Of a stretch of 64,000 bases of DNA, positions 43,595 to 58,510 are shown one piece after another. The notes below the pieces were generated by a model that searched no databases, was not told the origin of the DNA, and was given only the letters and a program-made list of their open reading frames with translations. A program made the position numbers and the translations under genes. Origin of the DNA: Anaerolineales bacterium (GTDB lineage: Bacteria; Chloroflexota; Anaerolineae; Anaerolineales; Villigracilaceae); NCBI GenBank assembly GCA_041287425.1, contig JBEULG010000028.1, positions 36,299 through 100,298 of the forward strand. The letters are read 5' to 3'. The number at the start of each line of letters is the position of its first letter. Position 1 is the stretch's first letter.

Positions 43595-44386
43595 TCAGCG
43601 CACGCGGCGTTTCCACTCGTCTTTCAATTGCAACTGGCGCGGGCTGTCGCCGGATATGAGCGCCAGGAAGTCGGTCAGCAGGCGGTTGAACTTGGCGCTT
43701 TCGTCAATCATCGGGAAATGGCCGGATTCATCCAGGATGATTTGGTGAATGCGTTCCGGCATGTCCATGATGCGCTCATAAGAGGGGGTTTGGATGGCGG
43801 GGTCATTCTGTCCATGGACGATGAGGCAGGGGGTGTTGAGAGTATCCATGAGCGGGAGGAGGCTGGCGCCGTCCAGGTCGTTGAAGGAGGCGACGATGGC
43901 GGCCGGGTCGGCTTTGGGGGCGTCGGTGCGGGCCGGTTCGGTGAGGGGGTCACGGCTCAGCAGCCAGTCGGCCAGATCGGCGGGGGAGGCGGGGGAACGC
44001 AGGCGAGCATTGACGGCGCCGATTTCGAACGGCACGCTGACGGCCATCAGGCGGTCGACCATCTCAGGAACGCGGCGGGCGAAGAGAATGCCGATCAGGG
44101 CACCCAGGCCGTGACCGACCAGAGCCACCTTGCCGATGCCCATCTCAACCATGAACTGTTCGAGCAGGGCGGTCTGTTTTTCGAGGCTGTAGCAGGAGGT
44201 GTCTTTGGCGGTGTCGCCGAATCCCCACAGGTCGAGGGCATAGGCGCGGAAAGAGATGGCCGCGGTCTGCATGGCGGGCACCCAGTAACGCCAGGAACCC
44301 ACCCAGCCGTGCAGGAAGATGATCGGACGGCCGCGCCCGAGCACCTCGTAATGCACAATTTTTTCGTCAATCAAGATCGCGCTCAT
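43595..44386 (-). CDS. Alpha/beta-hydrolase-fold protein lacking the nucleophile Ser (GHGLG)
   Basis: Colinear paralog of 56236..57033 (IVHYEVLGRGRPIIFLHGW...). Nucleophile elbow reads LVGHGLGAL. The Asp (HGQNDP) and His (SGHFPM) positions are retained. Confidence 0.85.
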   Translation of the reverse strand: MSAILIDEKIVHYEVLGRGRPIIFLHGWVGSWRYWVPAMQTAAISFRAYALDLWGFGDTAKDTSCYSLEKQTALLEQFMVEMGIGKVALVGHGLGALIGILFARRVPEMVDRLMAVSVPFEIGAVNARLRSPASPADLADWLLSRDPLTEPARTDAPKADPAAIVASFNDLDGASLLPLMDTLNTPCLIVHGQNDPAIQTPSYERIMDMPERIHQIILDESGHFPMIDESAKFNRLLTDFLALISGDSPRQLQLKDEWKRRVR

Positions 44387-44482
44387 GCCTCGTTCGGCTT
44401 CTTTTCAGAGGGTTGCAATCTTTGTTTTCGGACACCTGTTTCTGTCTGCCGCGCCGAATCGCCTCGATCAACACGCATTGGC

Positions 44483-44857
44483 TCATTTCTTGTGCTGGGC
44501 CAGGATGGTCTGAATGCGCGCCGTGAGTTGGTCGGGGGCAAAGGGTTTGAGCAGATATTCGGTCGCGCCCGCCGACAGCCCGGCCTGAATCTCGGCTTCC
44601 TGGCCCTTGGCGGAGAGGAACATGACCGGGATATCCTGCAGGGCCGGGTCGGCTTTGATGGCGGCGCAGGCTTCGTAGCCGGTCATGCGCGGCATGCGCA
44701 CGTCCATGAGAATCAGGTCCGGTTTTTCCTGCTGGGCGAGGGAGACGGCCTCTTCGCCATTGCTGGCGGCGACCACTTCGTAGCCGGCGAAGCGCAGGGT
44801 AAAGGTAATCAGGTCTCGAATGTCGCGTTCGTCTTCTGCAATCAAAATCTTTGCCAT
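44483..44857 (-). CDS. Single-domain CheY-like response regulator
   Basis: ORF 44483..44866. Likely start MAKILIAEDE (AGGAG upstream). Canonical DE, D (LILMDVRMP), S/T and K (LLKPF). Confidence 0.9.
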   Translation of the reverse strand: MAKILIAEDERDIRDLITFTLRFAGYEVVAASNGEEAVSLAQQEKPDLILMDVRMPRMTGYEACAAIKADPALQDIPVMFLSAKGQEAEIQAGLSAGATEYLLKPFAPDQLTARIQTILAQHKK

Positions 44858-44862
44858 GGATG

Positions 44863-47800
44863 TCACTCCTCAGCCTTGTAGACGGGTAAGGTAAACGAGA
44901 AGGTGCTCCCCTCACCCGGAATCCCCTTGCTGGTCATCCAGATGCGGCCCTGGTGCATTTCGACCAGTTGCTGGACGATGGACAGGCCCAAGCCGGTGCC
45001 GGGCGTCTCCAACACCAGCGGGTGCTCACCGCGGAAGAAACGGTCGAAGATGCGTTCCTGGTCAGCCAGGTCAATGCCGATGCCGTTGTCCTGGACATCT
45101 ACCTGGACCTCTTCGCCTTCCTGATGGATGCGGATGTGAATCTGGCCGTTGGCCGGGGTGTAGTGGTAAGCGTTGTCCATCAGGTTGTCGAGGATTTGGC
45201 GGACGCGCTCCTCGTCGCCGCGCACGAAGGGCAGGTCGGGCGGGGCGTCGAGGCTGAGGCCCATCGGGCGGTTCTCCTCCTGGGAGCGGCGCAACACATC
45301 GGCGAGGACGTCTTCGGCGATCTGGCGCAGGTCGAGCGGCTGCATGCTCAGGGTGATGCGGCCGGCCTCGATGCGCGAGATGTCGAGCAGGTCGTTGACC
45401 AGGATGCTCAGGCGGTCGGTGTTGGCGCGGACGATTTCGAGGAAATGTGTCTGGGTCTCGTTCAAGGCGCCCGCCGCGCCCATCAGCAGGATATCCACAT
45501 ATCCTTTAATAGAAGTCATCGGCGTGCGCAACTCGTGGCTGACGGTGGCGACGAACTCGGACTTGAGACGGTCCACCTCGACCTCGTGGGTGATATCGCG
45601 GAAGATGGAGACCGTGCCGAGGAATTCGTTGCGCCAGATGACCGGCGCCAGATGGACCAAGACCACCCGTCCGTTTTCGAGGGTCAACTGTTCGGCGTAG
45701 GTATCGCCGACCTGGTAACTGGCCGGGTTCTCCGACCAGGTGTGGATGGTCTGCATCCAGGTCTGGGCCGCTTTGCCGAACAGACCGACGAAATTTTCGA
45801 GCGGCTGGCCGCGCACTTGCTCGCCTTGCAGGTTGAGGATGCGTTCGGTGGAGGAGTTGACAAAGGTAATTTTGTTGTCGGGGTCGGTGACCAGGACGCC
45901 GTCGGCGACGGCCTCCAGAATCGCTTGCTGGCGGCTGGCTTCGACCTGTTGGTTGCGCAACATGCTGCCCAAACGCTCGGCCTGGTCGCGAATCAGTTCA
46001 TACAGGTGAGCGTTGTTGATGGCGACGGCCACCTGTGAGCCGATGGCCTGCACCAGGTTCATGTGGTCGGAGGTAAAGTAGCCCACCTGGCGATGGAAGA
46101 CCATGATGGCGCCGATGACTTCTTCGCCGACGGTCAGCGGGGCGGCGATGACGCTGCGATGCTGGGGGGCATTGGAAGGCAGTTTGACCCAGCGCTTGTC
46201 CTTGCGGACATCCTCCAGCAAAACGCTCTGGCGGTTCTTGATGACCCAACCGGCCAGCCCTTCGCCGACTTTGAGCGGGGTCGGGCGGGGGCCTTCGGTC
46301 ATGACGGGGGTGACGTAGCCGTAGCCGGCGCGGTACTGGATGGTATTGTCCTCGGGGTTGACCATCAGGATGCTGCCCTGTTCGGCGCCGATGGCGTCGT
46401 TGAGCAGCGCCAGGGTGCGGTTGAGCGCCCGATCCAGGTCGAGGCTGGCCGAGACCTCGGTCAGGATGCGCAGCAGGGTTTCGGTGTTGCGTTGCTCGCG
46501 GGCCAGTTCGGCGGTGCGTTCGATGACGCGTTGCTCGAGTTCCTCCGCCAGGCGGCGGGTCTCGGCAAACAGACGGCCGTTCTGGATGGCCACGGCGGCC
46601 TGGTTGGCCAGGGTGCTCAAAATCTGCTGGTCATCTTCGGTGTAAACGTTCGGTGTGTAACTCTGGGCCGAGAGCATACCGATGACTTTGCCGCCCAGGA
46701 TGATAGGCACAGCAACGATGGAGCGTGGCTGGCCCTGGCCATAGGTGCGGCCCTCGAAATTCTGGACGGCAGCCACATCGGCAATCAAGAGCGGTTCGCC
46801 GCTGGAGATAATCCGTCCGCTGAGGCCCTGTCCATACGGCAGACGCATGTTCGGGGCGCGTCCTTTGGGGTCCATCAGATAGACGCCTTCAATTTCATTG
46901 GCCTGTTCATCCAACAGGGCGATGACGAAGGACTCGGCTTCCATCATCTGGGCAGCGGCGCGGTGGATGGCAGCGTAGATTTCCTCGGGGTCGAGGCTGA
47001 GGGCAATCTCGTAGGAGGCGCGGTTGATGGTGGCCAGTTGTTCGGCGCGCGAGACGGTATCCTGATACAGCCGGGCGCTTTCGAGGGCGATGGCGGCCTG
47101 GTTGCTGACGGTGCGGGCCAGTTCGATTTCGGTCGGGGTGAAGCGGTAAGCCTCGCCTATGTGAACGAACATCAACGCCCGCAGGCTGGCTCCGCTGATG
47201 AGCGGCAGAACGAGCAGGGAGCGGGTGCCTTTGAGCAGTTCGGCCAGCGGTTCGAGGTCGGCCTCGGCTTCTACGTTGTCGGTGCTGAAGACGCCCAGCG
47301 AATCGCGCAGCCGCTCGAAGAGCGGGGCAGGCGGCAAGTTGTGGGGACGGAAACGGGCCGGTTCGGGGACGACCAGCCGCAGCACGGCTTCGCCACCGCG
47401 CCCAAAGGTGACGACCGAGACGCGGCGCGCCGAGAGGGCCTGACGCAGTTCCTCGGCCGTCAGGCGCAGAATCTGTTCCTCGCTCAGCGAACCACTCAGT
47501 TCGGCCGAGAGGCGGTTGAGCAAAGCCAGGCGCTGCGAGCGCTGATCGAGTTCGGCGGCGCGGCGCAGACTCTCTTCGTATAGGCGGGCATTTTCGAGCG
47601 CCACCGCCGCCTGGCTGGCAAACGTCGTCGCCAGTTGGGTGTATTCGACGGTGTAGAAGTGGGGCTCGGTCTTCTCGAGGGCCAGGACGCCAATCACCTC
47701 GCCCTTGGAAACCAGCGGCACGCCCAGCCAGGAAAGGCGCTCGGCGGCAACCAGGGCAGGGAAGCGGGGGTCGGCGCGCACGTCGCCGACGACGATGCCC

Positions 47801-50800
47801 TGCGAGGTGGTAATCATCTCGGTCAGCAGAGCCGAATCCTCGACCGCCACCTCCAGGCCGAGGCGCTCCTCGTCATCGGGGAAGCCGCGCGCCGCCGCCA
47901 CGACCATGTTCTTGCCTCGCCGCAGCCAGAGAATGGCCGTGTCGTAGGGCAGGACGGTCTTCAACTGGTCGAGCAGGCTGGCAATCAGTTCGCTGGACTG
48001 CAGGCTGGCCGCCATCTCGGCCGAGACCTCGGTGAGAGCCTGCAATTGGCCGGCGCGCTCCTGCGAAGCCTGCACCAGGCGGACGTTTTCGAGCGAGAGC
48101 GCCACTTGCTGAGTCAACGATTGCAGCAGGTTCTCATCGTCGGCCGAGAAGGCCGCCGGGGTGTTGAAGTTGTCGAGCACCAGCAAGCCCAGGATGCGCT
48201 CGCCGGTCTGAATGGGAACCAGCAGGCTGGAGACCGGCAGGCGTCCGCCGGTGGCTTCGCGGTACAGGAGCAGGTTCTCAGCCGCCAGGTTGTAGTCGCG
48301 GGCAAAGTTGACTTCTTCGACCCGGCGCGCTTTGCGCGCTTCGAAGACCTGGCCGGGCAAGGCTTCGCCGGAACGGAATGAAATTTGCAGCAGGCTGTCG
48401 ATGGCGGCATAATTGGCGGCCACGACCGGGACGAGGACCTGTTCCTGTTCTTTCCAGATTAACACCGCCCCGGCATGGGCGGCGGTGACCACCCGCAGGG
48501 CGCTGTCGAGCAGGGATTTGAGGATACTCTGCGGGTCGAGGCCGCTCAACTGGCGGCTGAAGTCGAGCAGGAGGTTGACTTCGCGCAGACGCCGGCGGGT
48601 TTCGGTCAGCAGGCTGATGTTTTGCAGGATGATGGAAACCTGACGGGCAATCTGATAATAGACCTGGCGGTCCTCCTCGGTCAGGGGAGGCATCGGCTCG
48701 AGGCTGATGGCCAGCACCCCCGCCACCGGTTTGTCGTCAATCAGGATGGGCAGGCAGATGAATCCTTTGGCATGCAGACTGCTGAGCAGGGGCGTATCTC
48801 GCCAGGTATCATCTTCCTCCAGATTCGTGACCAGCAGAGTTTCGCCTGTCTGCAGGCTGTAGCGCAGCGGGTTACGCTGGCCAAAGAGCGCCTCGGGGCT
48901 GGTGCCGCGCGGGATGTTGCCCAAGACATGCAGCAGCCGCGCTCCCTCCTCGGTGTTCTCGGCGACGATGGAGATGTGCATCTCCAGATGGGTCAGGATT
49001 TCGCGCCCCAGCGCCTGGAGGGCCGAGGGGCCGTCCACCTGGCGGTTGATGGTCTCGGTGATTTCCAATCCGGCGCGGATGCGGCGGCTGCGCCGCTCCA
49101 GGTTGCGGATGGCGATCATCTGCTCCAGGTCTTTGTGTAGCAGAACGGGCAGGTGGGTCTGGCTGATGGCCAGCAATTGCTGCTGGCGCTCCAGGCTGGT
49201 GGAGAGGGTCTCGACCTGGTTGCGGTAAGAGTTGAGACGGTGGACGCTTTGGATGAGCAGGGCAGCCTGGGCGGCGAAGATTTCGACCGTCTCGAGGGTG
49301 TTGCGGTTGGGGCGCAGGCCGTCGCGGGGCGCGTCCAGGCTGATGATTCCGATGGTGGCCCCTTCGTCGTCTTTGAGCGGGTAGAAGAGGGCATCTTCGG
49401 GGTGCCAGGCGTTGGGGGCCTGGGCGGTCGGCTCGCGCATGATGGTGACGATTTGAACGTCTTGCGAGAGGAGCGGGCGCTGGTCGTGCGGGATGAGGTA
49501 GCCCTCGCCGACCTTGAATTCGGGGCGCATCAACTGTTCGAGGGCCGAGTAGGGCTGCTGGCGGGCCTTCATCATGTTCAGGGTTTCGAGCGGCATGCCC
49601 ACCCCGGCGACGCGCCGCTGCATGCCGGTCTCTTTGTCCACCACGCTGATGAGCACCACCTGGAAGGGGGTCGCTTCCTGAATGCCGTAAGCCAGCGCCT
49701 CGAGCGATTCTTCCAGCGGACGGTCGAGGCCGATTTCGCGCGTGGTTTCGAAGAGTTTGGACAGCGTCTCGGCGCGCTGACGGAGCAGTTCGTTGCGGCT
49801 CACCTGTTCCTGATAGCGCTGGGCGTTGCCCAGGGCAATCGCCGCCTGGACGGCCAGGGTCATGATGATGTCCAGGGCCACCTGGTCGAAACGGTGGGGT
49901 TCGAAGGCATGCAAGTGAATCAGGCCGGCGGTTTTGCCCTGATAAGCAATGGGGACCACCAGAGCCGAAAGGACGCCCTCGTGCGCCGGCGAGTCGGCGC
50001 TTTGAGAGAAATCATCCACCAGGCGCGGCTCGCCGCGTTCGATGACCTCCCGCTCGAGGGGCGAGAGTTGCGCCGCCGGTTCATCTCCCAGGTGGAAGAC
50101 CGGGCGCGGATCGGCCTGCGAGGGGGCGTTCATGTCGAACAACAGGATGGTGCCGCAATCGGCGCGGGTGGTCCGCAGGCTTTCATCGTAGACCACCTGG
50201 AGCAAATACTGCCAGTCGAGGGTGGTGTTCAGTTCGCGGCCGATGCGGGTCATGGCCGTCAACTGGTCGACGCGCCGGCGCAGGCTCTCGTCGGTCTGTG
50301 AGGAGAGCGAGGCCCCCTCTACCGCGGCGGCCAGTTGCCCGGCAGCAGTCGAGACGACCTGTAAATCGTAATTGTTGAAGAAGTCGGCCTTCTTGCTGGC
50401 CAGCATCAGTTCCCCCAGGCTGCGCTCGCGCACGATGAGGGGAACGATGATGACCGATTCCATCTTCAACTTGTCCACCAGCGGCCGATAGACAGACAGC
50501 AGCCGCTCGTCGGCCGAGAGGTTGCTCGACAGGAAGGAGCGCTGGCTGCCCGTGACGGTGAAATGGAATTGGGGGTCATCCACATAGATGCGGCTGAAGG
50601 AGTCCACCGCTTCGGCCGAGACGCCGAAGAGCGAATCCAGGTGCAGGCGCGAGATGCCCTGGGCTTCGTTCAACAGGAAGACCGCCCCCATGTCGGCCTG
50701 AATCAGACGGGCCAGTTCCTGAACGGTATAGCGCAGCATCTCATCGGCGGTGGCCGAGGAACTCGTCAGGCTGGCGATGCGGCGCAGGGCCTCGGCGCGC

Positions 50801-52302
50801 TGGGCGCGTTGACGCGCTTGCTGCACCAGGGCGACGTTGTCGATGATGGGCGCCGTCTGGTTGGCGATGATGTTGAGCAAACGCATCTCGTCGGACGAAA
50901 ATGCACTCTCCCGGACGCGGTGATTGGCGATTTGCAGGAAACCGAGCGAACGTCCCGCCGAGACGAGGGGGATGAGGGCGACATCGCGCCAGGAAGCGGC
51001 CCGGGCAAAATCCTGGAAGCCCATCTCCCGCCAGAGTTCATCCTCCTGGGCGTTGCGGGTGATGAGCGCCTCGCGGCTGAGCAGGCGCTCCTCGAGCACG
51101 CCGCCGGCCGGGACGGGCAGGCGGTACAGGTCCACGAATTGGGCCGGCATGCCGATGAACGGCACCTGTCCCTCCAGCGAGCGGCGGCTCTCGTTGTAGA
51201 GGAGAAAGCCAAGCACCTGGACGTCCAGCAGCGGGGCGACGCTCTGCACCAGGCGGGTGAAGAGGTCGCGCGGGTCGCGGGTGGCGCCAATCGCCTGCGC
51301 CAGGTTGGCCAGGCCGCTCAACTCGGCGGTGCGGCGTTGTTCGTCTTCGAGCAATTGGGCGTTGCGCAAGGCGACGGCAGCCTGACCGGCAATCAACTGC
51401 AGGATGTCCATGTCCTCGCGCGAGAAGGCCTCGGCGCTGGCCAGCCCGACCGACAGAGTGCCCACTACCTCGTTCTGGATGAGGAGCGGCAGACCGATGT
51501 AGGAGCGGACGGGGGCTTGCTCTTCGCCCTCCTCGTAGGGAATCTCGGCGTAGGCACGCGTGTCTGGGATGAACAAGGGCTTGCGCTGTTCGAGCAGGTA
51601 AGCCGTATAACCCGTCGCCGGGCGCGGCAAACTCTTCTCGAGGGAGGCGGCGGCGCGAGGTCCGCTGGCGAAGCGGTAGACGACGACCTTGGCGTCGGCG
51701 GCGTTCCACAAGCCGACCTCCAGCAGGTCGGCCGGCACGAGACGCTGGACGTTTTCCATCAAGGTCTGGATGGTGGCCGTCAAGCCCCGGCTGACTGCCA
51801 GGCTCTGGCTGAACTCGGTCAGGATTTTGAGGGCCGAGCCGGAAACCTCGGCCGACTCGGGGGCGAGGGCAGAGGCGACGTCGACCCGGCGCAGGCTGAC
51901 CAGCAGGGCGGGAGTCGGGCCGGGGATGGCATAGGAGATGCCGTCCACCGGCCGGCCGTTGATGGAGAAGCGCGCCCAGCCCTCGGCGGCGCACAATTTC
52001 AAGAAATCCTCGCTGGGGCGGATACGCCGGGCCAGCAGTTCGAGGTTGGGCAGTTCTCCCTCGCGCAGGTTGAAATATTGCTGGGCCAGGCGGTTCATGT
52101 ATCCCACCCGTCCGCCAGCCTGCACCAGCAAGACGGCGTAATCATGCCCTCCCTGGTCAGGCAGGAAGGGCAGGAAGGAGGCCTTGGGGAGAGGCCGGTG
52201 CAGGCGGGGAATCAAACGCGCCAAGCCCCAGACCAGGAAAAAGAAGAGAAACCCGGTCAGGAGCAGGCCGATTCCCAGCAACACCGACTGCCCGGAAAAC
52301 AT
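44863..52302 (-). CDS. Giant (2479 aa) membrane-anchored sensor histidine kinase: about 11 tandem GAF domains, PAS, HisKA, HATPase_c
   Basis: N-terminal transmembrane segment. Recurrent GAF-like modules are separated by coiled-coil linkers (LLEDEQRRTAEL, LYEESLRRAAEL, LFAETRRLAEEL and others). H-box VSHELRTPMTSI. N/G boxes DNLMDNAYHYT, DNGIGI, GTGLGLSIV. The GAF count is a by-eye estimate. Confidence 0.9.
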   Translation of the reverse strand: MFSGQSVLLGIGLLLTGFLFFFLVWGLARLIPRLHRPLPKASFLPFLPDQGGHDYAVLLVQAGGRVGYMNRLAQQYFNLREGELPNLELLARRIRPSEDFLKLCAAEGWARFSINGRPVDGISYAIPGPTPALLVSLRRVDVASALAPESAEVSGSALKILTEFSQSLAVSRGLTATIQTLMENVQRLVPADLLEVGLWNAADAKVVVYRFASGPRAAASLEKSLPRPATGYTAYLLEQRKPLFIPDTRAYAEIPYEEGEEQAPVRSYIGLPLLIQNEVVGTLSVGLASAEAFSREDMDILQLIAGQAAVALRNAQLLEDEQRRTAELSGLANLAQAIGATRDPRDLFTRLVQSVAPLLDVQVLGFLLYNESRRSLEGQVPFIGMPAQFVDLYRLPVPAGGVLEERLLSREALITRNAQEDELWREMGFQDFARAASWRDVALIPLVSAGRSLGFLQIANHRVRESAFSSDEMRLLNIIANQTAPIIDNVALVQQARQRAQRAEALRRIASLTSSSATADEMLRYTVQELARLIQADMGAVFLLNEAQGISRLHLDSLFGVSAEAVDSFSRIYVDDPQFHFTVTGSQRSFLSSNLSADERLLSVYRPLVDKLKMESVIIVPLIVRERSLGELMLASKKADFFNNYDLQVVSTAAGQLAAAVEGASLSSQTDESLRRRVDQLTAMTRIGRELNTTLDWQYLLQVVYDESLRTTRADCGTILLFDMNAPSQADPRPVFHLGDEPAAQLSPLEREVIERGEPRLVDDFSQSADSPAHEGVLSALVVPIAYQGKTAGLIHLHAFEPHRFDQVALDIIMTLAVQAAIALGNAQRYQEQVSRNELLRQRAETLSKLFETTREIGLDRPLEESLEALAYGIQEATPFQVVLISVVDKETGMQRRVAGVGMPLETLNMMKARQQPYSALEQLMRPEFKVGEGYLIPHDQRPLLSQDVQIVTIMREPTAQAPNAWHPEDALFYPLKDDEGATIGIISLDAPRDGLRPNRNTLETVEIFAAQAALLIQSVHRLNSYRNQVETLSTSLERQQQLLAISQTHLPVLLHKDLEQMIAIRNLERRSRRIRAGLEITETINRQVDGPSALQALGREILTHLEMHISIVAENTEEGARLLHVLGNIPRGTSPEALFGQRNPLRYSLQTGETLLVTNLEEDDTWRDTPLLSSLHAKGFICLPILIDDKPVAGVLAISLEPMPPLTEEDRQVYYQIARQVSIILQNISLLTETRRRLREVNLLLDFSRQLSGLDPQSILKSLLDSALRVVTAAHAGAVLIWKEQEQVLVPVVAANYAAIDSLLQISFRSGEALPGQVFEARKARRVEEVNFARDYNLAAENLLLYREATGGRLPVSSLLVPIQTGERILGLLVLDNFNTPAAFSADDENLLQSLTQQVALSLENVRLVQASQERAGQLQALTEVSAEMAASLQSSELIASLLDQLKTVLPYDTAILWLRRGKNMVVAAARGFPDDEERLGLEVAVEDSALLTEMITTSQGIVVGDVRADPRFPALVAAERLSWLGVPLVSKGEVIGVLALEKTEPHFYTVEYTQLATTFASQAAVALENARLYEESLRRAAELDQRSQRLALLNRLSAELSGSLSEEQILRLTAEELRQALSARRVSVVTFGRGGEAVLRLVVPEPARFRPHNLPPAPLFERLRDSLGVFSTDNVEAEADLEPLAELLKGTRSLLVLPLISGASLRALMFVHIGEAYRFTPTEIELARTVSNQAAIALESARLYQDTVSRAEQLATINRASYEIALSLDPEEIYAAIHRAAAQMMEAESFVIALLDEQANEIEGVYLMDPKGRAPNMRLPYGQGLSGRIISSGEPLLIADVAAVQNFEGRTYGQGQPRSIVAVPIILGGKVIGMLSAQSYTPNVYTEDDQQILSTLANQAAVAIQNGRLFAETRRLAEELEQRVIERTAELAREQRNTETLLRILTEVSASLDLDRALNRTLALLNDAIGAEQGSILMVNPEDNTIQYRAGYGYVTPVMTEGPRPTPLKVGEGLAGWVIKNRQSVLLEDVRKDKRWVKLPSNAPQHRSVIAAPLTVGEEVIGAIMVFHRQVGYFTSDHMNLVQAIGSQVAVAINNAHLYELIRDQAERLGSMLRNQQVEASRQQAILEAVADGVLVTDPDNKITFVNSSTERILNLQGEQVRGQPLENFVGLFGKAAQTWMQTIHTWSENPASYQVGDTYAEQLTLENGRVVLVHLAPVIWRNEFLGTVSIFRDITHEVEVDRLKSEFVATVSHELRTPMTSIKGYVDILLMGAAGALNETQTHFLEIVRANTDRLSILVNDLLDISRIEAGRITLSMQPLDLRQIAEDVLADVLRRSQEENRPMGLSLDAPPDLPFVRGDEERVRQILDNLMDNAYHYTPANGQIHIRIHQEGEEVQVDVQDNGIGIDLADQERIFDRFFRGEHPLVLETPGTGLGLSIVQQLVEMHQGRIWMTSKGIPGEGSTFSFTLPVYKAEE

Positions 52303-52311
52303 AGGCGAGGA

Positions 52312-53220
52312 TTATCCTTTGGTCGGCAGAGGCGGCATATCCTGACGGCGCACCTCGGCGGCCAGTTCGGTAATCTCGCGGATATCGGCAAAAGTCTGTT
52401 CTTTGGGCGTGACGATTCCCACCGAGAGGGTCATCAAGGGCGTCTTTTCGGTCACGCCGCCGGGGCCAGAGGTCAGAATATATCCCTGCTGGCGGTCGAT
52501 GAAGTTGTAGTGCGTCAGCACTTCCTCGGCGAAGCGCGCCTTGAGGCGTTGACGGATGTTCTCGGCCGCGCTCTCGGAGGTGATGATGATGAAATTGTCG
52601 CCGCCAGCATGGCCGATGAAGTCGGTGGCATTGCCGAGTTCGTCCACCACTTCGCCCATCAGCATGGCGGTGAAGCGCAGGACGTCATCGCCGGCCACGA
52701 AGCCATAGACATCGTTGAACTGCGAAAAGTAATTGATGCGGATGTCCATGTACGCCCAGCCGCCCTGGCGGATGGTCTGCCGCAATTGTTCCTCGATCAG
52801 GCGGCCGGCCGGCAGGCCAGAACGCGGGTCGGTCAGCGCCTCGCGCTCGGCGCGGCGGATGGCGCCCTGGACGCGCAGTTTCAGTTCCTCGATGTCGAAG
52901 GGCTTGGTGATGTAATCATCCGCACCCAGTTCGAGGCCCTGCAACTTGTCGCTGCGCTCGTCCTTCTGCGTGAGGAAAATCACCGGGATGTGGCTGGTGC
53001 GCGTGTTCGTCCGCAGGGTGCGGCAAACCTCGTAGCCATCAATGTCTGGCAGCATGATGTCCAGCACGATGAGATGAGGCAAGACCTGACGCGTCTTTTC
53101 GAGGGCGTCGGCCCCCCGCGGGGCCACGTCCACGTCGTAGCCCAGCCCGCTGAAGTAAATCTTCAGCATATTGGAGATGTCATGATCATCTTCGACGACC
53201 AACAGGCGAGATTTTCCCAT
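52312..53220 (-). CDS. Response regulator with a GGDEF-like domain carrying GGDNF
   Basis: Canonical REC (LLVVEDDHD, IVLDIMLPDIDG, ITKPF), then a GGDEF-fold region: DPRSGLPAGR..YMDIRINYFSQFNDVYGFVAGDDVL..IGHAGGDNFIIIT. Confidence 0.85.
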   Translation of the reverse strand: MGKSRLLVVEDDHDISNMLKIYFSGLGYDVDVAPRGADALEKTRQVLPHLIVLDIMLPDIDGYEVCRTLRTNTRTSHIPVIFLTQKDERSDKLQGLELGADDYITKPFDIEELKLRVQGAIRRAEREALTDPRSGLPAGRLIEEQLRQTIRQGGWAYMDIRINYFSQFNDVYGFVAGDDVLRFTAMLMGEVVDELGNATDFIGHAGGDNFIIITSESAAENIRQRLKARFAEEVLTHYNFIDRQQGYILTSGPGGVTEKTPLMTLSVGIVTPKEQTFADIREITELAAEVRRQDMPPLPTKG

Positions 53221-53232
53221 AGTGCCTCCCGT

Positions 53233-54324
53233 TCAACTGCGAATACGGCGGGCTTGGCGCGCCGCCTGGCGTATGGCCTGAATCTGTTCTTCTGTCACTG
53301 CGCGCTCGAAGGAGCGGAAACCGCTCAGGCGGAAGCCGTGCTTGGCCGCCAGGGCGGAAATCTCCTCGACTCGTTCACGCGCGATGTTTTTGCCCAAAGT
53401 GTAATCCTCGAAACGGCCCTCCAGGGCCAGCGTCATCGTCTCCGCCATACAGGCATAGGCCTTGCCCGGCGGGAAACCGAAGTTAAAGTGGAAGTCGACG
53501 GGTCCCGGCACATCCACCATGCCGCCGTCTATCACTAATATATCATGTCTGACCGCTGCCACCATTGCAGAAACGTCACGAGGGCGGGCCACATCGCACA
53601 CCACGCTGCCCGGCTGGAGGTGCTCTGGATAGATGAGCTCGTGCACGGCGCTGGTGACAGTCAGAATCAACTGCGCCTGGGCGATGTCGTTGACGCGCGT
53701 GCTCGTCCGCAGGGCAGCCCGGCCGGGACCCTGCAACTGTTCGCGCAGGGCTTCGAGCGTCTCCTGGCGGCGGCCGATGAGAATCAACTCGGCTACATCG
53801 TCGGCCAACAGGTCGGCACAAACCCGGCCGATCGAGCCGGTTGCGCCGACCACGGCAGCCGTCGCCTGGCGGAGGGGAATCTCCATCACGCGCGCCGCCT
53901 CGCGCACGGCTGCGACGGCGATTGCCACCGTGTACGAATCGCCGGTTGTGACGGGGATGTCGAGCGCCCGGGCAATCGTCAGGCCGGCATCGCCGATGAC
54001 GGAGGTGAAGGCACCCAGCCCCAGGATTTGGGCGCCGAGTCTTTCTGCAAGGCGGCCCGTCTGAATAATCTTACGATAAACTGTCTGTTCGCGCAACTCC
54101 ATCATGCGGCGCGGTGTATAGGGGCAGGCGATGAACCAGCCGCGAATCTCCTTGCCGGTCGCCTGCGAGGTGATGCCGGTAATCTCGGAAATATAGACGG
54201 GCGGGAAAAAAGTCGAAAAGAAATCTATCTGCCGCTCGCTGAGCAGGCGGCCAAGCAGGGGGAATTTCCGACTGACATCCCGCTTGGGATCAATCGGGTG
54301 GATGATGAAGGCAAAGGTGTCCAC
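53233..54324 (-). CDS. Acyl-ACP-reductase (cyanobacterial AAR)-like NAD(P)-dependent oxidoreductase
   Basis: Blocks align by eye with AAR: FAFIIHP.., LGAFTSVIGD, VTTGDSYT, ATAAVVGATGSIGRVCADLL, and YACMAETMTLALEG (Cys at the AAR catalytic-Cys position). Confidence 0.7.
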   Translation of the reverse strand: MDTFAFIIHPIDPKRDVSRKFPLLGRLLSERQIDFFSTFFPPVYISEITGITSQATGKEIRGWFIACPYTPRRMMELREQTVYRKIIQTGRLAERLGAQILGLGAFTSVIGDAGLTIARALDIPVTTGDSYTVAIAVAAVREAARVMEIPLRQATAAVVGATGSIGRVCADLLADDVAELILIGRRQETLEALREQLQGPGRAALRTSTRVNDIAQAQLILTVTSAVHELIYPEHLQPGSVVCDVARPRDVSAMVAAVRHDILVIDGGMVDVPGPVDFHFNFGFPPGKAYACMAETMTLALEGRFEDYTLGKNIARERVEEISALAAKHGFRLSGFRSFERAVTEEQIQAIRQAARQARRIRS

Positions 54325-54328
54325 GCGT

Positions 54329-55606
54329 TTACCACGAGGTCAGATCCGCTTCGCCGCGGCGGGGATACAGGCGCGGGTGTTTGCTGGCATCTTTGAGTTT
54401 GTGGTGGTCGCTCTGTTCGTACTTGACATCCCGGTCGATGATGCGGCGTTCGGCCGAACCGAACAGCACCACGTCCGACTCGATGGTGCGGGCGGGGAAG
54501 ACGATCATACCGGCGCCGATGCGGCAGTTGTGGCCGACGCATCCGCCCAGCACCGGCCGGTTGGCAAATGCCAGTTGGTCGCTGCCATCCAGCGCTCGGA
54601 TGGGCGAGGGAATCAAATTATAATCGGTAAACGTGTTACCGGCGCCGATGAAGGTGTTGCGCCCCACGACGCACATTTGCAGGCAGGTGTTCTGGGCGAC
54701 CATGCCGTTTTCCATGATGGTGGTCATGAACAGAGAAGCCCGGAAAGGCAGGAAGGTGCCATCGCCCACCACCGAGAGCATCAACTGACAGCCCTGCGAG
54801 ATGTTGACGTTGCTGCCGATGATGCAGTTCTCGATGACGGCCCCGGCGTTGATGGTGACGTTGTCGCCGATGGTGGTCGGGCCGTGGATGATGGCAGTGG
54901 GGTCAATGACGCAGTTCTTGCCGACCTTGACGAGTTTGGAACACTCCAGCAATTGCTTGCCCTCGTAGATGGCGGTTGCCAGAACGCCCAGTTTGAACCA
55001 CAGGTCGCGGGCCAGGCGTTCTTCGAAGCGCGCCCCGCGGGCGAACAGGCCGAAGACGCCGTCGGCGATGAAGATGTGCGTCCAGCAGTCGATGGCCATC
55101 ATCGCCCGCAGCGGGACCTGATAGACCAGGTCGCCGCTTTCGGTGGCCATGTAGGTCGGCACGTGATAATAGCCGATTTCGCGCGCCTGCATGTCGATCA
55201 CCAGGGGTTCGACATCGGCTTCCGGCCCATTGGGGTAATACCATAGGTCAGCGTAGTACAGATTGCCGGCCGGGGTATAGGAGACGGACAAGGGCAAGGC
55301 ATGTTCACGGAAGGCGGCGTCGTCCAGCGAAAAGGCAGCCCGGACGGCGCGGTTGCGCTTTTTGGCCTGGGTCAGGAATTCGGTGATGTAGTATTCATCG
55401 AAGAACAGATTGTCGCGGTAGACAATCATCGGCTCGCGCGAAATCGGCAGGTGGGCGCCGGGTGGGAGTTCGATTTCACGGTCCACGTAGGGAGCCAGCA
55501 GGTCGCGCTGATTCAGCCACAGCGGCTTGTTCTGGATGCGCAAGTCGCGCGCCGGTTCGTTGAAAGGCGGAATGTGGCGGGGAGCCTGGAGGATGACCTT
55601 GAGCAT
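54329..55606 (-). CDS. Left-handed beta-helix (hexapeptide-repeat) protein, transferase-like
   Basis: C-terminal half is rich in imperfect hexapeptide repeats (IGDNVTINAGAVIENCIIGSNVNISQGC...VGRNTFIGAGNTF...VGHNCRIGAGMIV). The N-terminal ~220 aa are unassigned. Confidence 0.7.
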   Translation of the reverse strand: MLKVILQAPRHIPPFNEPARDLRIQNKPLWLNQRDLLAPYVDREIELPPGAHLPISREPMIVYRDNLFFDEYYITEFLTQAKKRNRAVRAAFSLDDAAFREHALPLSVSYTPAGNLYYADLWYYPNGPEADVEPLVIDMQAREIGYYHVPTYMATESGDLVYQVPLRAMMAIDCWTHIFIADGVFGLFARGARFEERLARDLWFKLGVLATAIYEGKQLLECSKLVKVGKNCVIDPTAIIHGPTTIGDNVTINAGAVIENCIIGSNVNISQGCQLMLSVVGDGTFLPFRASLFMTTIMENGMVAQNTCLQMCVVGRNTFIGAGNTFTDYNLIPSPIRALDGSDQLAFANRPVLGGCVGHNCRIGAGMIVFPARTIESDVVLFGSAERRIIDRDVKYEQSDHHKLKDASKHPRLYPRRGEADLTSW

Positions 55607-55609
55607 AGA

Positions 55610-56239
55610 TTATCCGATTGGGGTCCGATTAATTATTATTGTACACGCGCTGTCCCCAGACGCAATACATTTCGTCTCTTCCACCTGGAAGTATTTTCCC
55701 CCGCTGAGCCAGTACAAAGACTCTTGCAGCAAGCCGACCGCCAGGTGACAAGCCGGGCCATCGGTCTGGCGCTGCCAGCAGAGCGGACAGCGTTCGATGT
55801 GCCAGTAGAGGTTGTGTTCGTCTGATTCCAGGCGCACCCGTTGGTCGGTGAAATCGTTGAACAGGGCTGCCAGCGCCTCGCTGCCGGTCTTGATTTTGGT
55901 CGCCAGCGGCAAGAGGCGGAACGCCAGGTCGGTCAGTCCCAGTTCGGGGCCGAATTCTCGCAGGCCATATTTCAGACAGGCGCGTCCGGCGCGCAGCGCC
56001 AGTCCGCGCCCGCCGCGCGGGCCGTAGGCGGCCTCCAGGCTGGCTTGCAGCCGGCTGACCTGCTCGAAGGGAAATTTGCGGTCGTGGTTGTGGGGAGGAT
56101 AATGCCCAATATATTCCGAAAGAGAGGCCAGGTGGAGGACGGCGTTGATGCCATTCCGCCCCAGAATCTCTTCCATGGCGAGGAGAATGATGCGCCCCAT
56201 CGAGTTGGGGTAGAAGTAGGCCTCTGCAGGTGTTTTCAT
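55610..56239 (-). CDS. V4R-domain (4-vinyl-reductase-type small-molecule-binding) protein
   Basis: C-terminal ERCPLCWQRQTDGPACHLAVGLLQESLYWLSGGKYFQVEETKCIASGDSACTIII fits the V4R Cys pattern. ATGA overlap with the upstream hydrolase gene. Confidence 0.75.
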   Translation of the reverse strand: MKTPAEAYFYPNSMGRIILLAMEEILGRNGINAVLHLASLSEYIGHYPPHNHDRKFPFEQVSRLQASLEAAYGPRGGRGLALRAGRACLKYGLREFGPELGLTDLAFRLLPLATKIKTGSEALAALFNDFTDQRVRLESDEHNLYWHIERCPLCWQRQTDGPACHLAVGLLQESLYWLSGGKYFQVEETKCIASGDSACTIIINRTPIG

Positions 56240-57033
56240 CCGGCAGGTGTCTCTTCGTCCAGGAATTGTTTCAGTTTGTGCATGAAAGGCTCGGGGTCAT
56301 CGAGCATGATGAAGTGGCCGGCCTGTTCGAAGCGCTCGATGCGGGCGTGAGGGACGCCCTCCAACAAGGGTCGCCATTGCATGGGATGGACGATGATGTC
56401 CTTGTCCCCATACATTCCCATCACCGGGATGCGAATCTGGTCGAGCAGGGGGCGCAAGTCGGTGCGCCGCAGCGAAGCGATGCTGAGCAGGAAAGACTCG
56501 AGGGTGGTGCGTGACAGGTCTTTGTCCATCATGTCGGGGAAGCGGGGGTCTTTGCAGATAAAAGGAGAAGCCACCCTCATCCCCAGCCGGAAGGCCCACA
56601 TCATGTTGAACAGCATGACCGCGATCGGCCGCCGCCCGGCCATCTTCAACGCCCAGGCCAGCGAGGACCCGACGATGGGCGAGCCGACGACAACGACTTT
56701 CCTGGCCCGCTGGGGATATTGAATGGCCACCGACAGGCTGACCGTCCCGCCCATGCTGTGACCGACCAGCGGCGCCGAGTCGATGCCCAGGTGGTTCATG
56801 AATTGGTCCACCAGGCTGACAAAATCCTGAACGGCATAGGTCTCACGTTTTTTGCCCGATTCGCCAAATCCCCAAAAATCGAGCGCGTAGGTGCGGTAGA
56901 AACGCCCCAAATACGTCATCGTCTCCTGCCACAGGCCCCACGAACCGAGCCAGCCATGCAACAGGATGACCGGACGTCCGCGTCCATAGACTTCGTAATG
57001 TACAATACCCTGGTCGGTGGTTATCGAGGACAC
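56236..57033 (-). CDS. Alpha/beta hydrolase with an intact Ser-Asp-His triad
   Basis: HGWLGSW, nucleophile elbow VGHSMGG, YGDKD, and AGHFIM. Confidence 0.88.
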   Translation of the reverse strand: MSSITTDQGIVHYEVYGRGRPVILLHGWLGSWGLWQETMTYLGRFYRTYALDFWGFGESGKKRETYAVQDFVSLVDQFMNHLGIDSAPLVGHSMGGTVSLSVAIQYPQRARKVVVVGSPIVGSSLAWALKMAGRRPIAVMLFNMMWAFRLGMRVASPFICKDPRFPDMMDKDLSRTTLESFLLSIASLRRTDLRPLLDQIRIPVMGMYGDKDIIVHPMQWRPLLEGVPHARIERFEQAGHFIMLDDPEPFMHKLKQFLDEETPAG

Positions 57034-57057
57034 GGTGTTTACAACGAGATGGAGAGA

Positions 57058-57600
57058 TTATTTCTCCCCACCCTCCATCTCAGCCAGGATGCTGTAGAGC
57101 AATTCGAGCAGCACCGTCTTGACTGAGTCGCGGTCGGTGGCCACACAGGGCAAGAATTTGACTTTCGAATCGAGCCGCAGGGCGAGGCGCATATCCTCCA
57201 ATTCCCAGGCGTCTTTCTTGTCCTGTTTGTTGGCGGCCACCACGTAAGGGGTCGGGGCGTAGGCGCGGAAGGTCTCCAGAATCGAGCGCGCCTCGCGAAA
57301 AGTCTCTGGACGGGTGCTGTCCACCAGGACGATGAAGCCCAACATCCCCTCCGAGAGAATCTCCCACATAAAGTCGAAGCGCTTTTGGCCGGGGGTGCCA
57401 AACAAATACAAGACTAGGTCCTCGTCCACCGTGATGCGGCCGAAGTCCATCGCCACGGTGGTGGCCTCTTTGACCGTCCGCTCCAGGGCGCTGGAGATTT
57501 TTCGCTCGGTCGAAACCACATCAATCTCGCTGACCGAACGGATGAATTCCGTCTTGCCGGCGTTGAAAGGACCTGTAACGACCATTTTGACCGTTTGCAT
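57058..57600 (-). CDS. Small Ras-like GTPase (COG2229/CvnD/MglA-related ATP/GTP-binding protein)
   Basis: ORF 57058..57618 (TTG). Likely start MQTVKMVVTGPFNAGKT (ATG 57600, GAGG upstream). G1 GPFNAGKT, G3 GTPGQKRF, G4 ANKQD. Confidence 0.85.
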   Translation of the reverse strand: MQTVKMVVTGPFNAGKTEFIRSVSEIDVVSTERKISSALERTVKEATTVAMDFGRITVDEDLVLYLFGTPGQKRFDFMWEILSEGMLGFIVLVDSTRPETFREARSILETFRAYAPTPYVVAANKQDKKDAWELEDMRLALRLDSKVKFLPCVATDRDSVKTVLLELLYSILAEMEGGEK

Positions 57601-57621
57601 GATGACTATCCTCGACAAAAT

Positions 57622-58437
57622 TTAGAGCGACCGAATGCGGTTGATCAGGCGGTTGACCAGAGATTTCTGCTCATCCTTGTTCTCGGTCGGGAACATGCGC
57701 GCCGGTGGAGGCGGGGGCGCTCCCTCCGGACGACAAATCTCTACCAAGCCGGCCTGCAGCAACCCGTAAACAATCCGGCGGATTTCCAGGTCGTTCATCT
57801 TGGTTGCGTTGGCAATCTGGCGGATGGTGTTCTTGGGGTTGATGTAGGAAACCACCCGCCACTCTTCCACGCTCAAATTGACCTTGCGCAGATTCGCATC
57901 CGGCCGGTCGGTGAACTTGAGCGCCATATCCAGGCTGGGGATTTCATCCTGCAACTGCTCCCACTCGCGCAATTGCCGCGAACCCTCGATGATCAAATTC
58001 TCGAGGTCCAGACGGACGTTGATGCGGTCTTCAGGCGGCAGTTGATCGTTTTCGAAGCGGAAAAATCCCTCCACCCAGGTAAACAATCGCTGGACGATAT
58101 CGGTGAAATGCTGTTGCAAATTCGTGAGGATGTCTTCCTGGGTGACGTAGCCGGCATTGATGAGCAGGAGGCCGAGTTCCTTGTCGGAAATGGAACCGGC
58201 CCGCTGCTGGATGGCTCGATATTGACCGGCAGACAACTTGTTGGCTTTGTACAGAATGGACGCTAGCCCTCCATCTTCGCGGCCAATCTGCGCGTAGGCT
58301 AGTTTCCCGTCACGGAACGACACCTGGGCAGTCTCGCTGGGACCTTCGACAATCAGCGTCCCCGTTTTGCGGGCCAGGTTGATAAGATTGAGGAGTTGCG
58401 TTATCGTAAAATCACGCAGATTACCACGCAGCGCCAT
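57622..58437 (-). CDS. DUF4388/PATAN-domain protein with a C-terminal wHTH-like region
   Basis: ORF 57622..58470. Likely start MALRGNLRDFTITQLLNLINL (typical DUF4388 N-terminus). The start could also be 58470. Confidence 0.75.
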   Translation of the reverse strand: MALRGNLRDFTITQLLNLINLARKTGTLIVEGPSETAQVSFRDGKLAYAQIGREDGGLASILYKANKLSAGQYRAIQQRAGSISDKELGLLLINAGYVTQEDILTNLQQHFTDIVQRLFTWVEGFFRFENDQLPPEDRINVRLDLENLIIEGSRQLREWEQLQDEIPSLDMALKFTDRPDANLRKVNLSVEEWRVVSYINPKNTIRQIANATKMNDLEIRRIVYGLLQAGLVEICRPEGAPPPPPARMFPTENKDEQKSLVNRLINRIRSL

Positions 58438-58481
58438 GGCAGCCTCAGAGCATGTCCCTGGAAGGGACACAAGGTAAAATG

Positions 58482-58510
58482 ATTATACTTGTAAGGGTGT
58501 CTTGCGTCAA
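58482..58510 (-). promoter_or_regulatory. Near-consensus promoter TTGACG-17-TATAAT heading the ten-gene operon
   Basis: Read directly on the minus strand in an AT-rich spacer. Confidence 0.65.

Follow-up and report, generated by a model that had tools for sequence, protein, structure and literature searches.

A stand-alone V4R protein is a fixed component of an Anaerolineae signalling operon with a PATAN protein and an MglA-family GTPase

A 64,000-nucleotide stretch of an Anaerolineales metagenome-assembled genome from a hot spring (Chloroflexota; assembly GCA_041287425.1, contig JBEULG010000028.1, positions 36,299 to 100,298), hereafter the window, carries on its minus strand ten tightly packed genes (window positions 43595-58470) recognised from open reading frame (ORF) calls and profile scans. 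Their spacing goes from a 4-nt overlap up to 24 nt, the exception being 96 nt preceding the final gene. One of them encodes a V4R-domain protein and lies close to a gene for a small Ras-like GTPase, a pairing that a preliminary description of the window had proposed as a possible prokaryotic counterpart of TRAPP/Bet3 and its GTPase. Our data show the V4R gene to be a constant part of this ten-gene Anaerolineae signalling operon, and the evidence favours a V4R sensor feeding a GTPase switch over a TRAPP-like exchange factor.

The operon opens with a gene for a 282-residue PATAN/DUF4388 protein (57622-58470, minus strand, as are all operon genes below; Pfam DUF4388 8.8e-28, 97.2 bits against a PF14332 cut-off of 25 bits), which is missing from the preliminary description. 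Its end is followed after 3 nt by the gene for an MglA-family small Ras-like GTPase of 186 residues (57058-57618), and the G1 GPFNAGKT, G3 GTPGQ and G4 NKQD motifs first reported for this protein are all in its translation. At the G3 position held by Asp in Ras and by Thr in MglA it has Gly. The protein matches Pfam ATP_bind_1 (1e-20), Ras (3e-10) and Arf (3e-8), and its top PDB match is MglA of T. thermophilus (3t12, E 6e-7), with Arf and Rab chains ranking below. Next comes an alpha/beta-fold serine hydrolase of 265 residues (hydrolase-1; 56236-57033; Pfam Abhydrolase_1 2.5e-32), followed by the stand-alone V4R protein of 209 residues (55610-56239). The ORFs confirm that this hydrolase gene is the only one between GTPase and V4R and that its stop overlaps the V4R start in an ATGA, so that the two genes are translationally coupled.

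Conservation of this neighbourhood was followed with a V4R search profile made from a 5-sequence alignment, one genome per GTDB species being scanned. The scan yielded 540 V4R relatives. Neighbourhood counts were taken from the best 80 of the 540 relatives' loci, which hold 81 V4R genes and are all labelled Anaerolineae/Chloroflexota, except two metagenome-assembled genome records (Nitrotoga, Archaeoglobales). A PATAN-GTPase pair precedes the V4R gene within 3 kb in 54 of the 81 (type A), always with PATAN directly upstream of the GTPase, and a Roadblock/MglB gene precedes it in 18; in what we call module B, Roadblock, V4R and a response regulator follow one another. Five V4R genes stand behind neither, with a response regulator downstream, and four were not judged, the contig end being too near or the V4R ORF uncalled. 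The regulator concerned, with a receiver (REC) and a degenerate GGDEF domain (REC-GGDEF*), lies downstream of 69 of the 80 V4R genes scored.

Within the same order the arrangement PATAN-GTPase-hydrolase-V4R is intact in 18 of 18 relatives, most of which also retain downstream the left-handed beta-helix (LbH), acyl-ACP-reductase-like (AAR-like), REC-GGDEF* and kinase genes described below, and the GTPase is 80-99% identical across the order. Anaerolinea thermophila (L115) is among the bacteria that have the operon. The chance of a random gene lying this near the GTPase is ~0.2%, because the 2.9-Mb source genome has a single GTPase of the MglA-type family. The adjacency first noticed here therefore recurs beyond this genome and goes far beyond chance. 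Rearranged versions exist as well: PATAN, GTPase and V4R are kept without the hydrolase in five loci (L055, L100, L128, L141, L168), one or two Roadblock genes are inserted between GTPase and V4R in three (L120, L136, L061), and in L104 a Roadblock-V4R-response regulator module sits directly upstream of the main operon. The linkage of this V4R subfamily to a PATAN-GTPase pair or to Roadblock is a direct observation, as are the gene content, the domain identities and the fold. Because they stay neighbours throughout an entire class of filamentous bacteria, V4R and the GTPase very probably work together.

The statement that no Roadblock/MglB gene lies in the operon is true of the window, where neither Roadblock nor DUF742 turned up when all operon proteins but the kinase, nine in number, were scanned with Pfam. 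The genome, however, has two Robl_LC7 genes outside the window. One of them (C3:117754-118125, 68.8 bits) stands directly upstream of a V4R paralogue, which fits the earlier idea that V4R is tied to small-GTPase regulation. The other (C21:16586-16960), closely paralogous to the first, is an orphan flanked by an apparent IMP dehydrogenase and an apparent CTP synthase, as judged from translations, and may encode the MglB of the genome's single GTPase.

A homologue of the GTPase is present in 32 of 150 Chloroflexota genomes. Of 20 GTPase loci outside the order, 13 have PATAN immediately upstream and 7 have Roadblock as a neighbour, and V4R is found in one (L061), together with LbH and hydrolase genes. 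The core partner set of the GTPase is thus PATAN, with or without Roadblock, in agreement with PATAN-MglA/MglB neighbourhoods already published (PMC4316618). GTPase orthologues elsewhere usually lack V4R; therefore V4R, along with the enzymes, is an accessory layer that has become fixed chiefly in Anaerolineae, and not an obligatory partner or exchange factor of the GTPase. PATAN is known to bind the pilus motor PilB1 (10.1101/2021.06.11.447907).

The V4R assignment survives profile search: the protein scores 35.5 bits against Pfam PF02830, whose cut-off is 31, and also matches MetOD1. All 58 aligned relatives match the V4R profile, and none of the 58 matches Pfam TRAPP_Bet3 (PF04051) at E<=1, so that at the level of sequence families the protein classifies as V4R, not Bet3. 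The kinship between V4R and Bet3 put forward at the outset stands for the fold, as published (PMC2253512) and as seen with Foldseek, and does not extend to the Bet3 family profile. The AF2 model (pLDDT 94.5) aligns with H-NOX at TMq 0.61-0.63, with Bet3 at 0.46-0.55 and with MopR at 0.48-0.53. The phenol sensors MopR 5kbe and PoxR 5frz are matched with probability 1.0, in keeping with the two-layer alpha/beta fold that these two and MJ1460 have in common, and mouse Bet3 (1wc8/1wc9) with TMt up to 0.69. Further Bet3-fold matches are 6aq3 and 7yh3, and the matches include palmitate-bound TRAPPC3/Bet3 and Thor-TRAPPC3. The model is closer to H-NOX than to Bet3, with MopR and PoxR scoring about the same as Bet3. 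H-NOX, V4R and Bet3 are a known fold group (PMC2253512, PMC10933270), and MopR and MJ1460 give weak sequence matches to the protein. Since H-NOX proteins head the fold matches, heme binding was considered, but it was rejected: the sole nearby His, H146, is not conserved.

Residues 72-87 form an invariant Gly/Arg-rich motif, YGPRGGRGLALRAGRA (YGPRGGRG...R..GR), where the long helix begins. The motif resembles an anion-binding helix cap, which hints at a phosphate- or carboxylate-containing ligand or partner. The motif includes G73-x3-G77, an invariant counterpart of the Gly-x3-Gly helix-packing motif of Bet3, whose second doublet was not seen. Five cysteines (Cys151, 154, 164, 191 and 199), each at least 90% conserved, make up a cluster whose equivalent is a Zn site in PoxR and Thor-TRAPPC3. 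The V4R profile found 1625 proteins among 1.8 billion representatives. Some of the closest relatives carry an N-terminal TIR, kinase-TIR or CHAT-FHA, and a Zn-ribbon fusion occurs too (fused relatives P0148, P0164, P0172, P0202, P0231 and P0210). These are architectures of the immune or effector type; the TIR and CHAT fusions are built like a sensor domain that governs an effector, and a recent preprint argues the same logic for other V4Rs (10.64898/2026.10.19.760177). No V4R fusion to Roadblock, GTPase or PATAN was found among the ten long matches scanned from the best 150 representatives.

The remaining operon genes encode enzyme-like proteins and a phosphorelay. Hydrolase-1 has the nucleophile elbow GHSMGG and is related, among PDB entries, to esterases, epoxide hydrolases and C-C hydrolases. 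Directly downstream of V4R, and likewise in most type-A loci, is the gene for an LbH/hexapeptide protein of 425 residues (54329-55606; Pfam Hexapep 1e-11, LbH_EIF2B below cut-off). Its C-terminal half is a left-handed beta-helix and its N-terminal half a divergent nucleotidyltransferase-like region without the usual GGxGTRL nucleotide-binding signature; the model is of low confidence (pLDDT 59), and its top PDB matches, which give no more than a hint, are ST0452, GDP-mannose pyrophosphorylases and GMPPA/B. By analogy with GMPPA or eIF2B gamma/epsilon, the LbH protein may be a non-catalytic regulatory member. It is followed by a 363-residue NAD(P) reductase resembling acyl-ACP reductase and the N-terminal part of PigE (53233-54324). 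NCBIfam gives PigE at 9e-65 and AcACP_reductase at 1.7e-37, each below the equivalog cut-off, and the PDB gives 4ppm at 7.5e-33 and cyanobacterial AAR 6jzq at 1.5e-31; these matches mark the enzyme as truly related to cyanobacterial acyl-ACP reductase and to the N-terminal domain of PigE.

The relay consists of the REC-GGDEF* response regulator (52312-53220; Pfam Response_reg 1.3e-28, GGDEF 2.4e-12), whose translation reads GGDNF at the degenerate motif, of a multi-GAF/PAS histidine kinase of 2479 residues (44863-52302), an ORF with HisKA/HATPase motifs in its translation that is conserved downstream in relatives, and of a single-domain receiver of 127 residues (44483-44866; Pfam Response_reg 2.7e-32) whose gene has a 4-nt overlap with the end of the kinase gene. 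The final gene encodes hydrolase-2, an alpha/beta-hydrolase paralogue (43595-44386; Pfam Abhydrolase_6 1.5e-18). It is 30% identical to hydrolase-1, and Gly replaces the nucleophile Ser (GHGLG); hydrolase-2 may be a ligand receptor instead of an enzyme. An alpha/beta-hydrolase match also lies behind the kinase/REC genes in several relatives (e.g. L109, L121, L125, L129, L131).

The source genome has three further V4R genes beyond the operon. The V4R paralogue mentioned above belongs to a module B, in which the Roadblock gene of 68.8 bits, V4R and REC-GGDEF* form a triad that is present in most relatives. A maximum-likelihood tree unites the Roadblock-linked V4Rs in a single clade (support 100/99), which neighbours type-A operons still holding Roadblock. 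The tree suggests, with an uncertain root, that a PATAN-GTPase-Roadblock-V4R arrangement was ancestral and that the triad was duplicated from it. A third module (C3:69416-75473) contains, in this order, an OmpR-type response regulator, a REC-ParA/TadZ-like ATPase, HTH and GNAT proteins, two V4R proteins and a lipase-like Hydrolase_4 protein, the regulator and the ATPase lying ~3 kb upstream of the tandem V4Rs. Its V4R-V4R-Hydrolase_4 part, with the two upstream response regulator genes, is kept in roughly every second locus examined, and no GTPase or Roadblock gene was found within these ~12-kb loci. Tandem V4R genes are carried to an extreme in one Anaerolineales genome, where seven stand in a row (L057, G035:C6:52004-57912).

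Outside bacteria, we sampled 101 archaeal genomes of one phylum, reached via locus L103, and found V4R in 50 and Roadblock in 39 of them. In four of these genomes (L177-L180) there is a conserved cluster with a tandem-V4R protein, in the order PilB-like ATPase, Roadblock-fusion, Roadblock, two unknowns, MinD/ParA ATPase, REC-PAS, tandem-V4R, one unknown and prepilin peptidase; REC-PAS was detected in L177 and not in the other three. In these clusters V4R and Roadblock accompany a switch of the ParA type and genes for type IV filaments. A PATAN-like identity of three archaeal neighbours was dropped, as neither Pfam nor a PATAN hidden Markov model confirmed it.

Taking these observations together, we lean, with modest conviction, towards a reading of V4R as a sensor of a small molecule, or an adaptor, that acts on an MglA/MglB-type switch and on REC-GGDEF* and whose ligand the co-encoded enzymes control. 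The ligand would be a hydrophobic, probably lipid-derived small molecule, and its level would be set by hydrolase-1, the AAR-like reductase and the LbH protein. V4R would then convey its ligand state, through contacts between proteins, to the MglA/Roadblock/PATAN switch and to REC-GGDEF*, the same regulator on which the giant GAF kinase would act. By analogy with PATAN-PilB1 and MglA/MglB, the output is possibly control of type IV pili or polarity. Ligand binding, the nature of the ligand, the contacts and the output are all inferred from these comparisons.

Several points weigh against such a sensor. Conservation within one class is partly shared ancestry, which inflates the counts. The operon could be co-regulated without V4R contacting the GTPase, and the Arg-rich YGPRGGRGLALRAGRA could indicate an anionic instead of a hydrophobic ligand. 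The operon contains no pilus genes, two T2SSE ATPases being encoded elsewhere in the genome. Finally, three hot-spring DNA runs contain the operon sequence and no RNA run does.

Among the alternatives, the one that survives best is that V4R does no more than carry or chaperone a hydrophobic compound, one that the neighbouring enzymes (hydrolase, AAR-like, LbH) take as substrate or release as product, with the GTPase genes sharing just a promoter. Such a role has been proposed for BchJ. The 4-nt overlap between hydrolase and V4R seen here is found again in at least 24 of 51 loci, the V4R-V4R-Hydrolase_4 module does without GTPase and Roadblock, and the AAR-like enzyme is a real relative of acyl-thioester reductases, all of which would suit a carrier. 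It is harder to explain in this way why GTPase, PATAN and V4R stay together in the five loci where the hydrolase is lost, why module B is free of enzymes, or why the V4R-V4R-hydrolase module retains a response regulator and a REC-ParA-like ATPase upstream. We regard a carrier role as possible but somewhat doubtful.

The reading that goes back to the initial interest in this locus, namely that V4R, by itself or together with Roadblock, regulates the MglA-family GTPase in the manner of TRAPP, either as a guanine nucleotide exchange factor (GEF) or as a modulator of GTPase-activating protein (GAP) and GEF activities, seems to us unlikely. It draws on the common Bet3/TRAPPC3 fold, on the published V4R-Bet3 homology (PMC2253512), on the fact that the operon encodes no recognised GEF, and on the position of V4R beside GTPase or Roadblock, which recalls the TRAPP architecture of Bet3 with longin/roadblock-type subunits. 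Against this, family members fail to match the Bet3 profile, the model is nearer H-NOX, the protein retains the Cys cluster of ligand-binding V4Rs, and its relatives look like sensor domains fused to TIR or CHAT effectors, the long matches checked including no Roadblock or GTPase fusion. Genomic context points the same way: V4R accompanies the GTPase in only one of the 20 loci outside the order, those of other Chloroflexota classes, and is repeatedly paired with alpha/beta hydrolases in GTPase-free loci. In addition, MglB itself can serve as both GAP and GEF, according to one report (10.1101/2023.03.05.531159). We give similarly little weight to the related proposal that V4R and a Roadblock-fold protein would form a bacterial TRAPP/Ragulator-like platform regulating nucleotide exchange or hydrolysis by the GTPase in a ligand-dependent manner. 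That the adjacency is functionally meaningless, a matter of chance or hitch-hiking, is very improbable: another gene does separate V4R from the GTPase and the link is found mainly within one bacterial class, but it holds for 54 of 81 V4R genes across 80 species loci with several independent rearrangements, and is joined by the paralogous Roadblock-V4R pairing and by the archaeal Roadblock/MinD/tandem-V4R cluster kept in four genomes.

Among the known systems that come close to the operon is the MglA/MglB polarity switch with PATAN neighbours, of Group 5 type within the MglA family (Wuichet & Sogaard-Andersen 2015, PMC4316618; Makarova et al. 2006). As in that system, the GTPase lacks the G3 Asp and has MglA as its best PDB match, PATAN is directly upstream, and Roadblock is in the genome and, in some relatives, inside the operon; membership of Group 5 itself is putative. 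Unlike in that system, a single operon here adds V4R, two hydrolase paralogues, an AAR-like enzyme, an LbH protein and a kinase-REC relay, and V4R is mentioned 0 times in the same paper (PMC4316618). The core of PATAN, MglA and MglB is already known, and it is V4R and the enzyme set within it that appear to be new; we found no description of an operon containing them in open-access papers and preprints.

Actinobacterial conservons (CvnA kinase, CvnB Roadblock, CvnC DUF742, CvnD GTPase) similarly join an MglA-family GTPase and a histidine kinase in one unit and may include an accessory protein, for example CvnF8 (PMC13343842). The present operon differs in having PATAN, V4R and enzymes instead of DUF742 and Roadblock. 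With the eukaryotic TRAPP core (Bet3/TRAPPC3 plus longin-type subunits, a Rab GEF) and Asgard TRAPPC3 (PMC10933270) it shares the V4R/Bet3 fold, a putative hydrophobic-ligand pocket and a putative Cys/Zn site as in Thor-TRAPPC3, as well as genes near a small GTPase and Roadblock-fold proteins. Distinct from TRAPP are the lack of Bet3-family sequence membership, a GTPase that is MglA-type and not Rab, and a V4R that is dispensable in other lineages. The V4R sensors XylR, DmpR, MopR and PoxR, together with V4R-effector fusions (10.64898/2026.10.19.760177), have the same Pfam domain and a Cys-containing C-terminal segment. The logic might be alike as well, with V4R sensing a small molecule of a neighbouring enzyme and controlling an effector; V4R is unfused here, and the presumed effector is an MglA/Roadblock switch acting in trans.

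Eukaryotic regulators of membrane traffic are assembled from small Ras-like GTPases, Roadblock/longin platforms and Bet3-fold proteins. In Asgard archaea, partners are hard to assign because the genes for GTPases and candidate regulators generally lie outside operons (2024 structural study, PMC10933270), whereas the fixed compact operon of Anaerolineae and its paralogous Roadblock-V4R module name concrete protein pairs. Were the TRAPP/Ragulator-like reading true, the partnership of Bet3-fold, Roadblock/longin-fold and small GTPase proteins would predate eukaryotes and could be studied in a defined bacterial operon. If V4R is a sensor only, it would give an MglA/MglB-type switch a small-molecule input, the first such case in the literature searched, with candidate ligand-making enzymes encoded alongside the switch.

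Two minor observations concern the 5' part and the limits of the operon. Because orthologue alignments begin at residue 2-7, translation of the GTPase possibly starts at an ATG near 57600. A promoter-like site on the minus strand (58482-58510) precedes the PATAN gene; as a consensus match it reads TTGACG-17-TATAAT and agrees at 11 of 12 positions, and the next such match on this strand (43570-43542) lies past the last gene of the operon.

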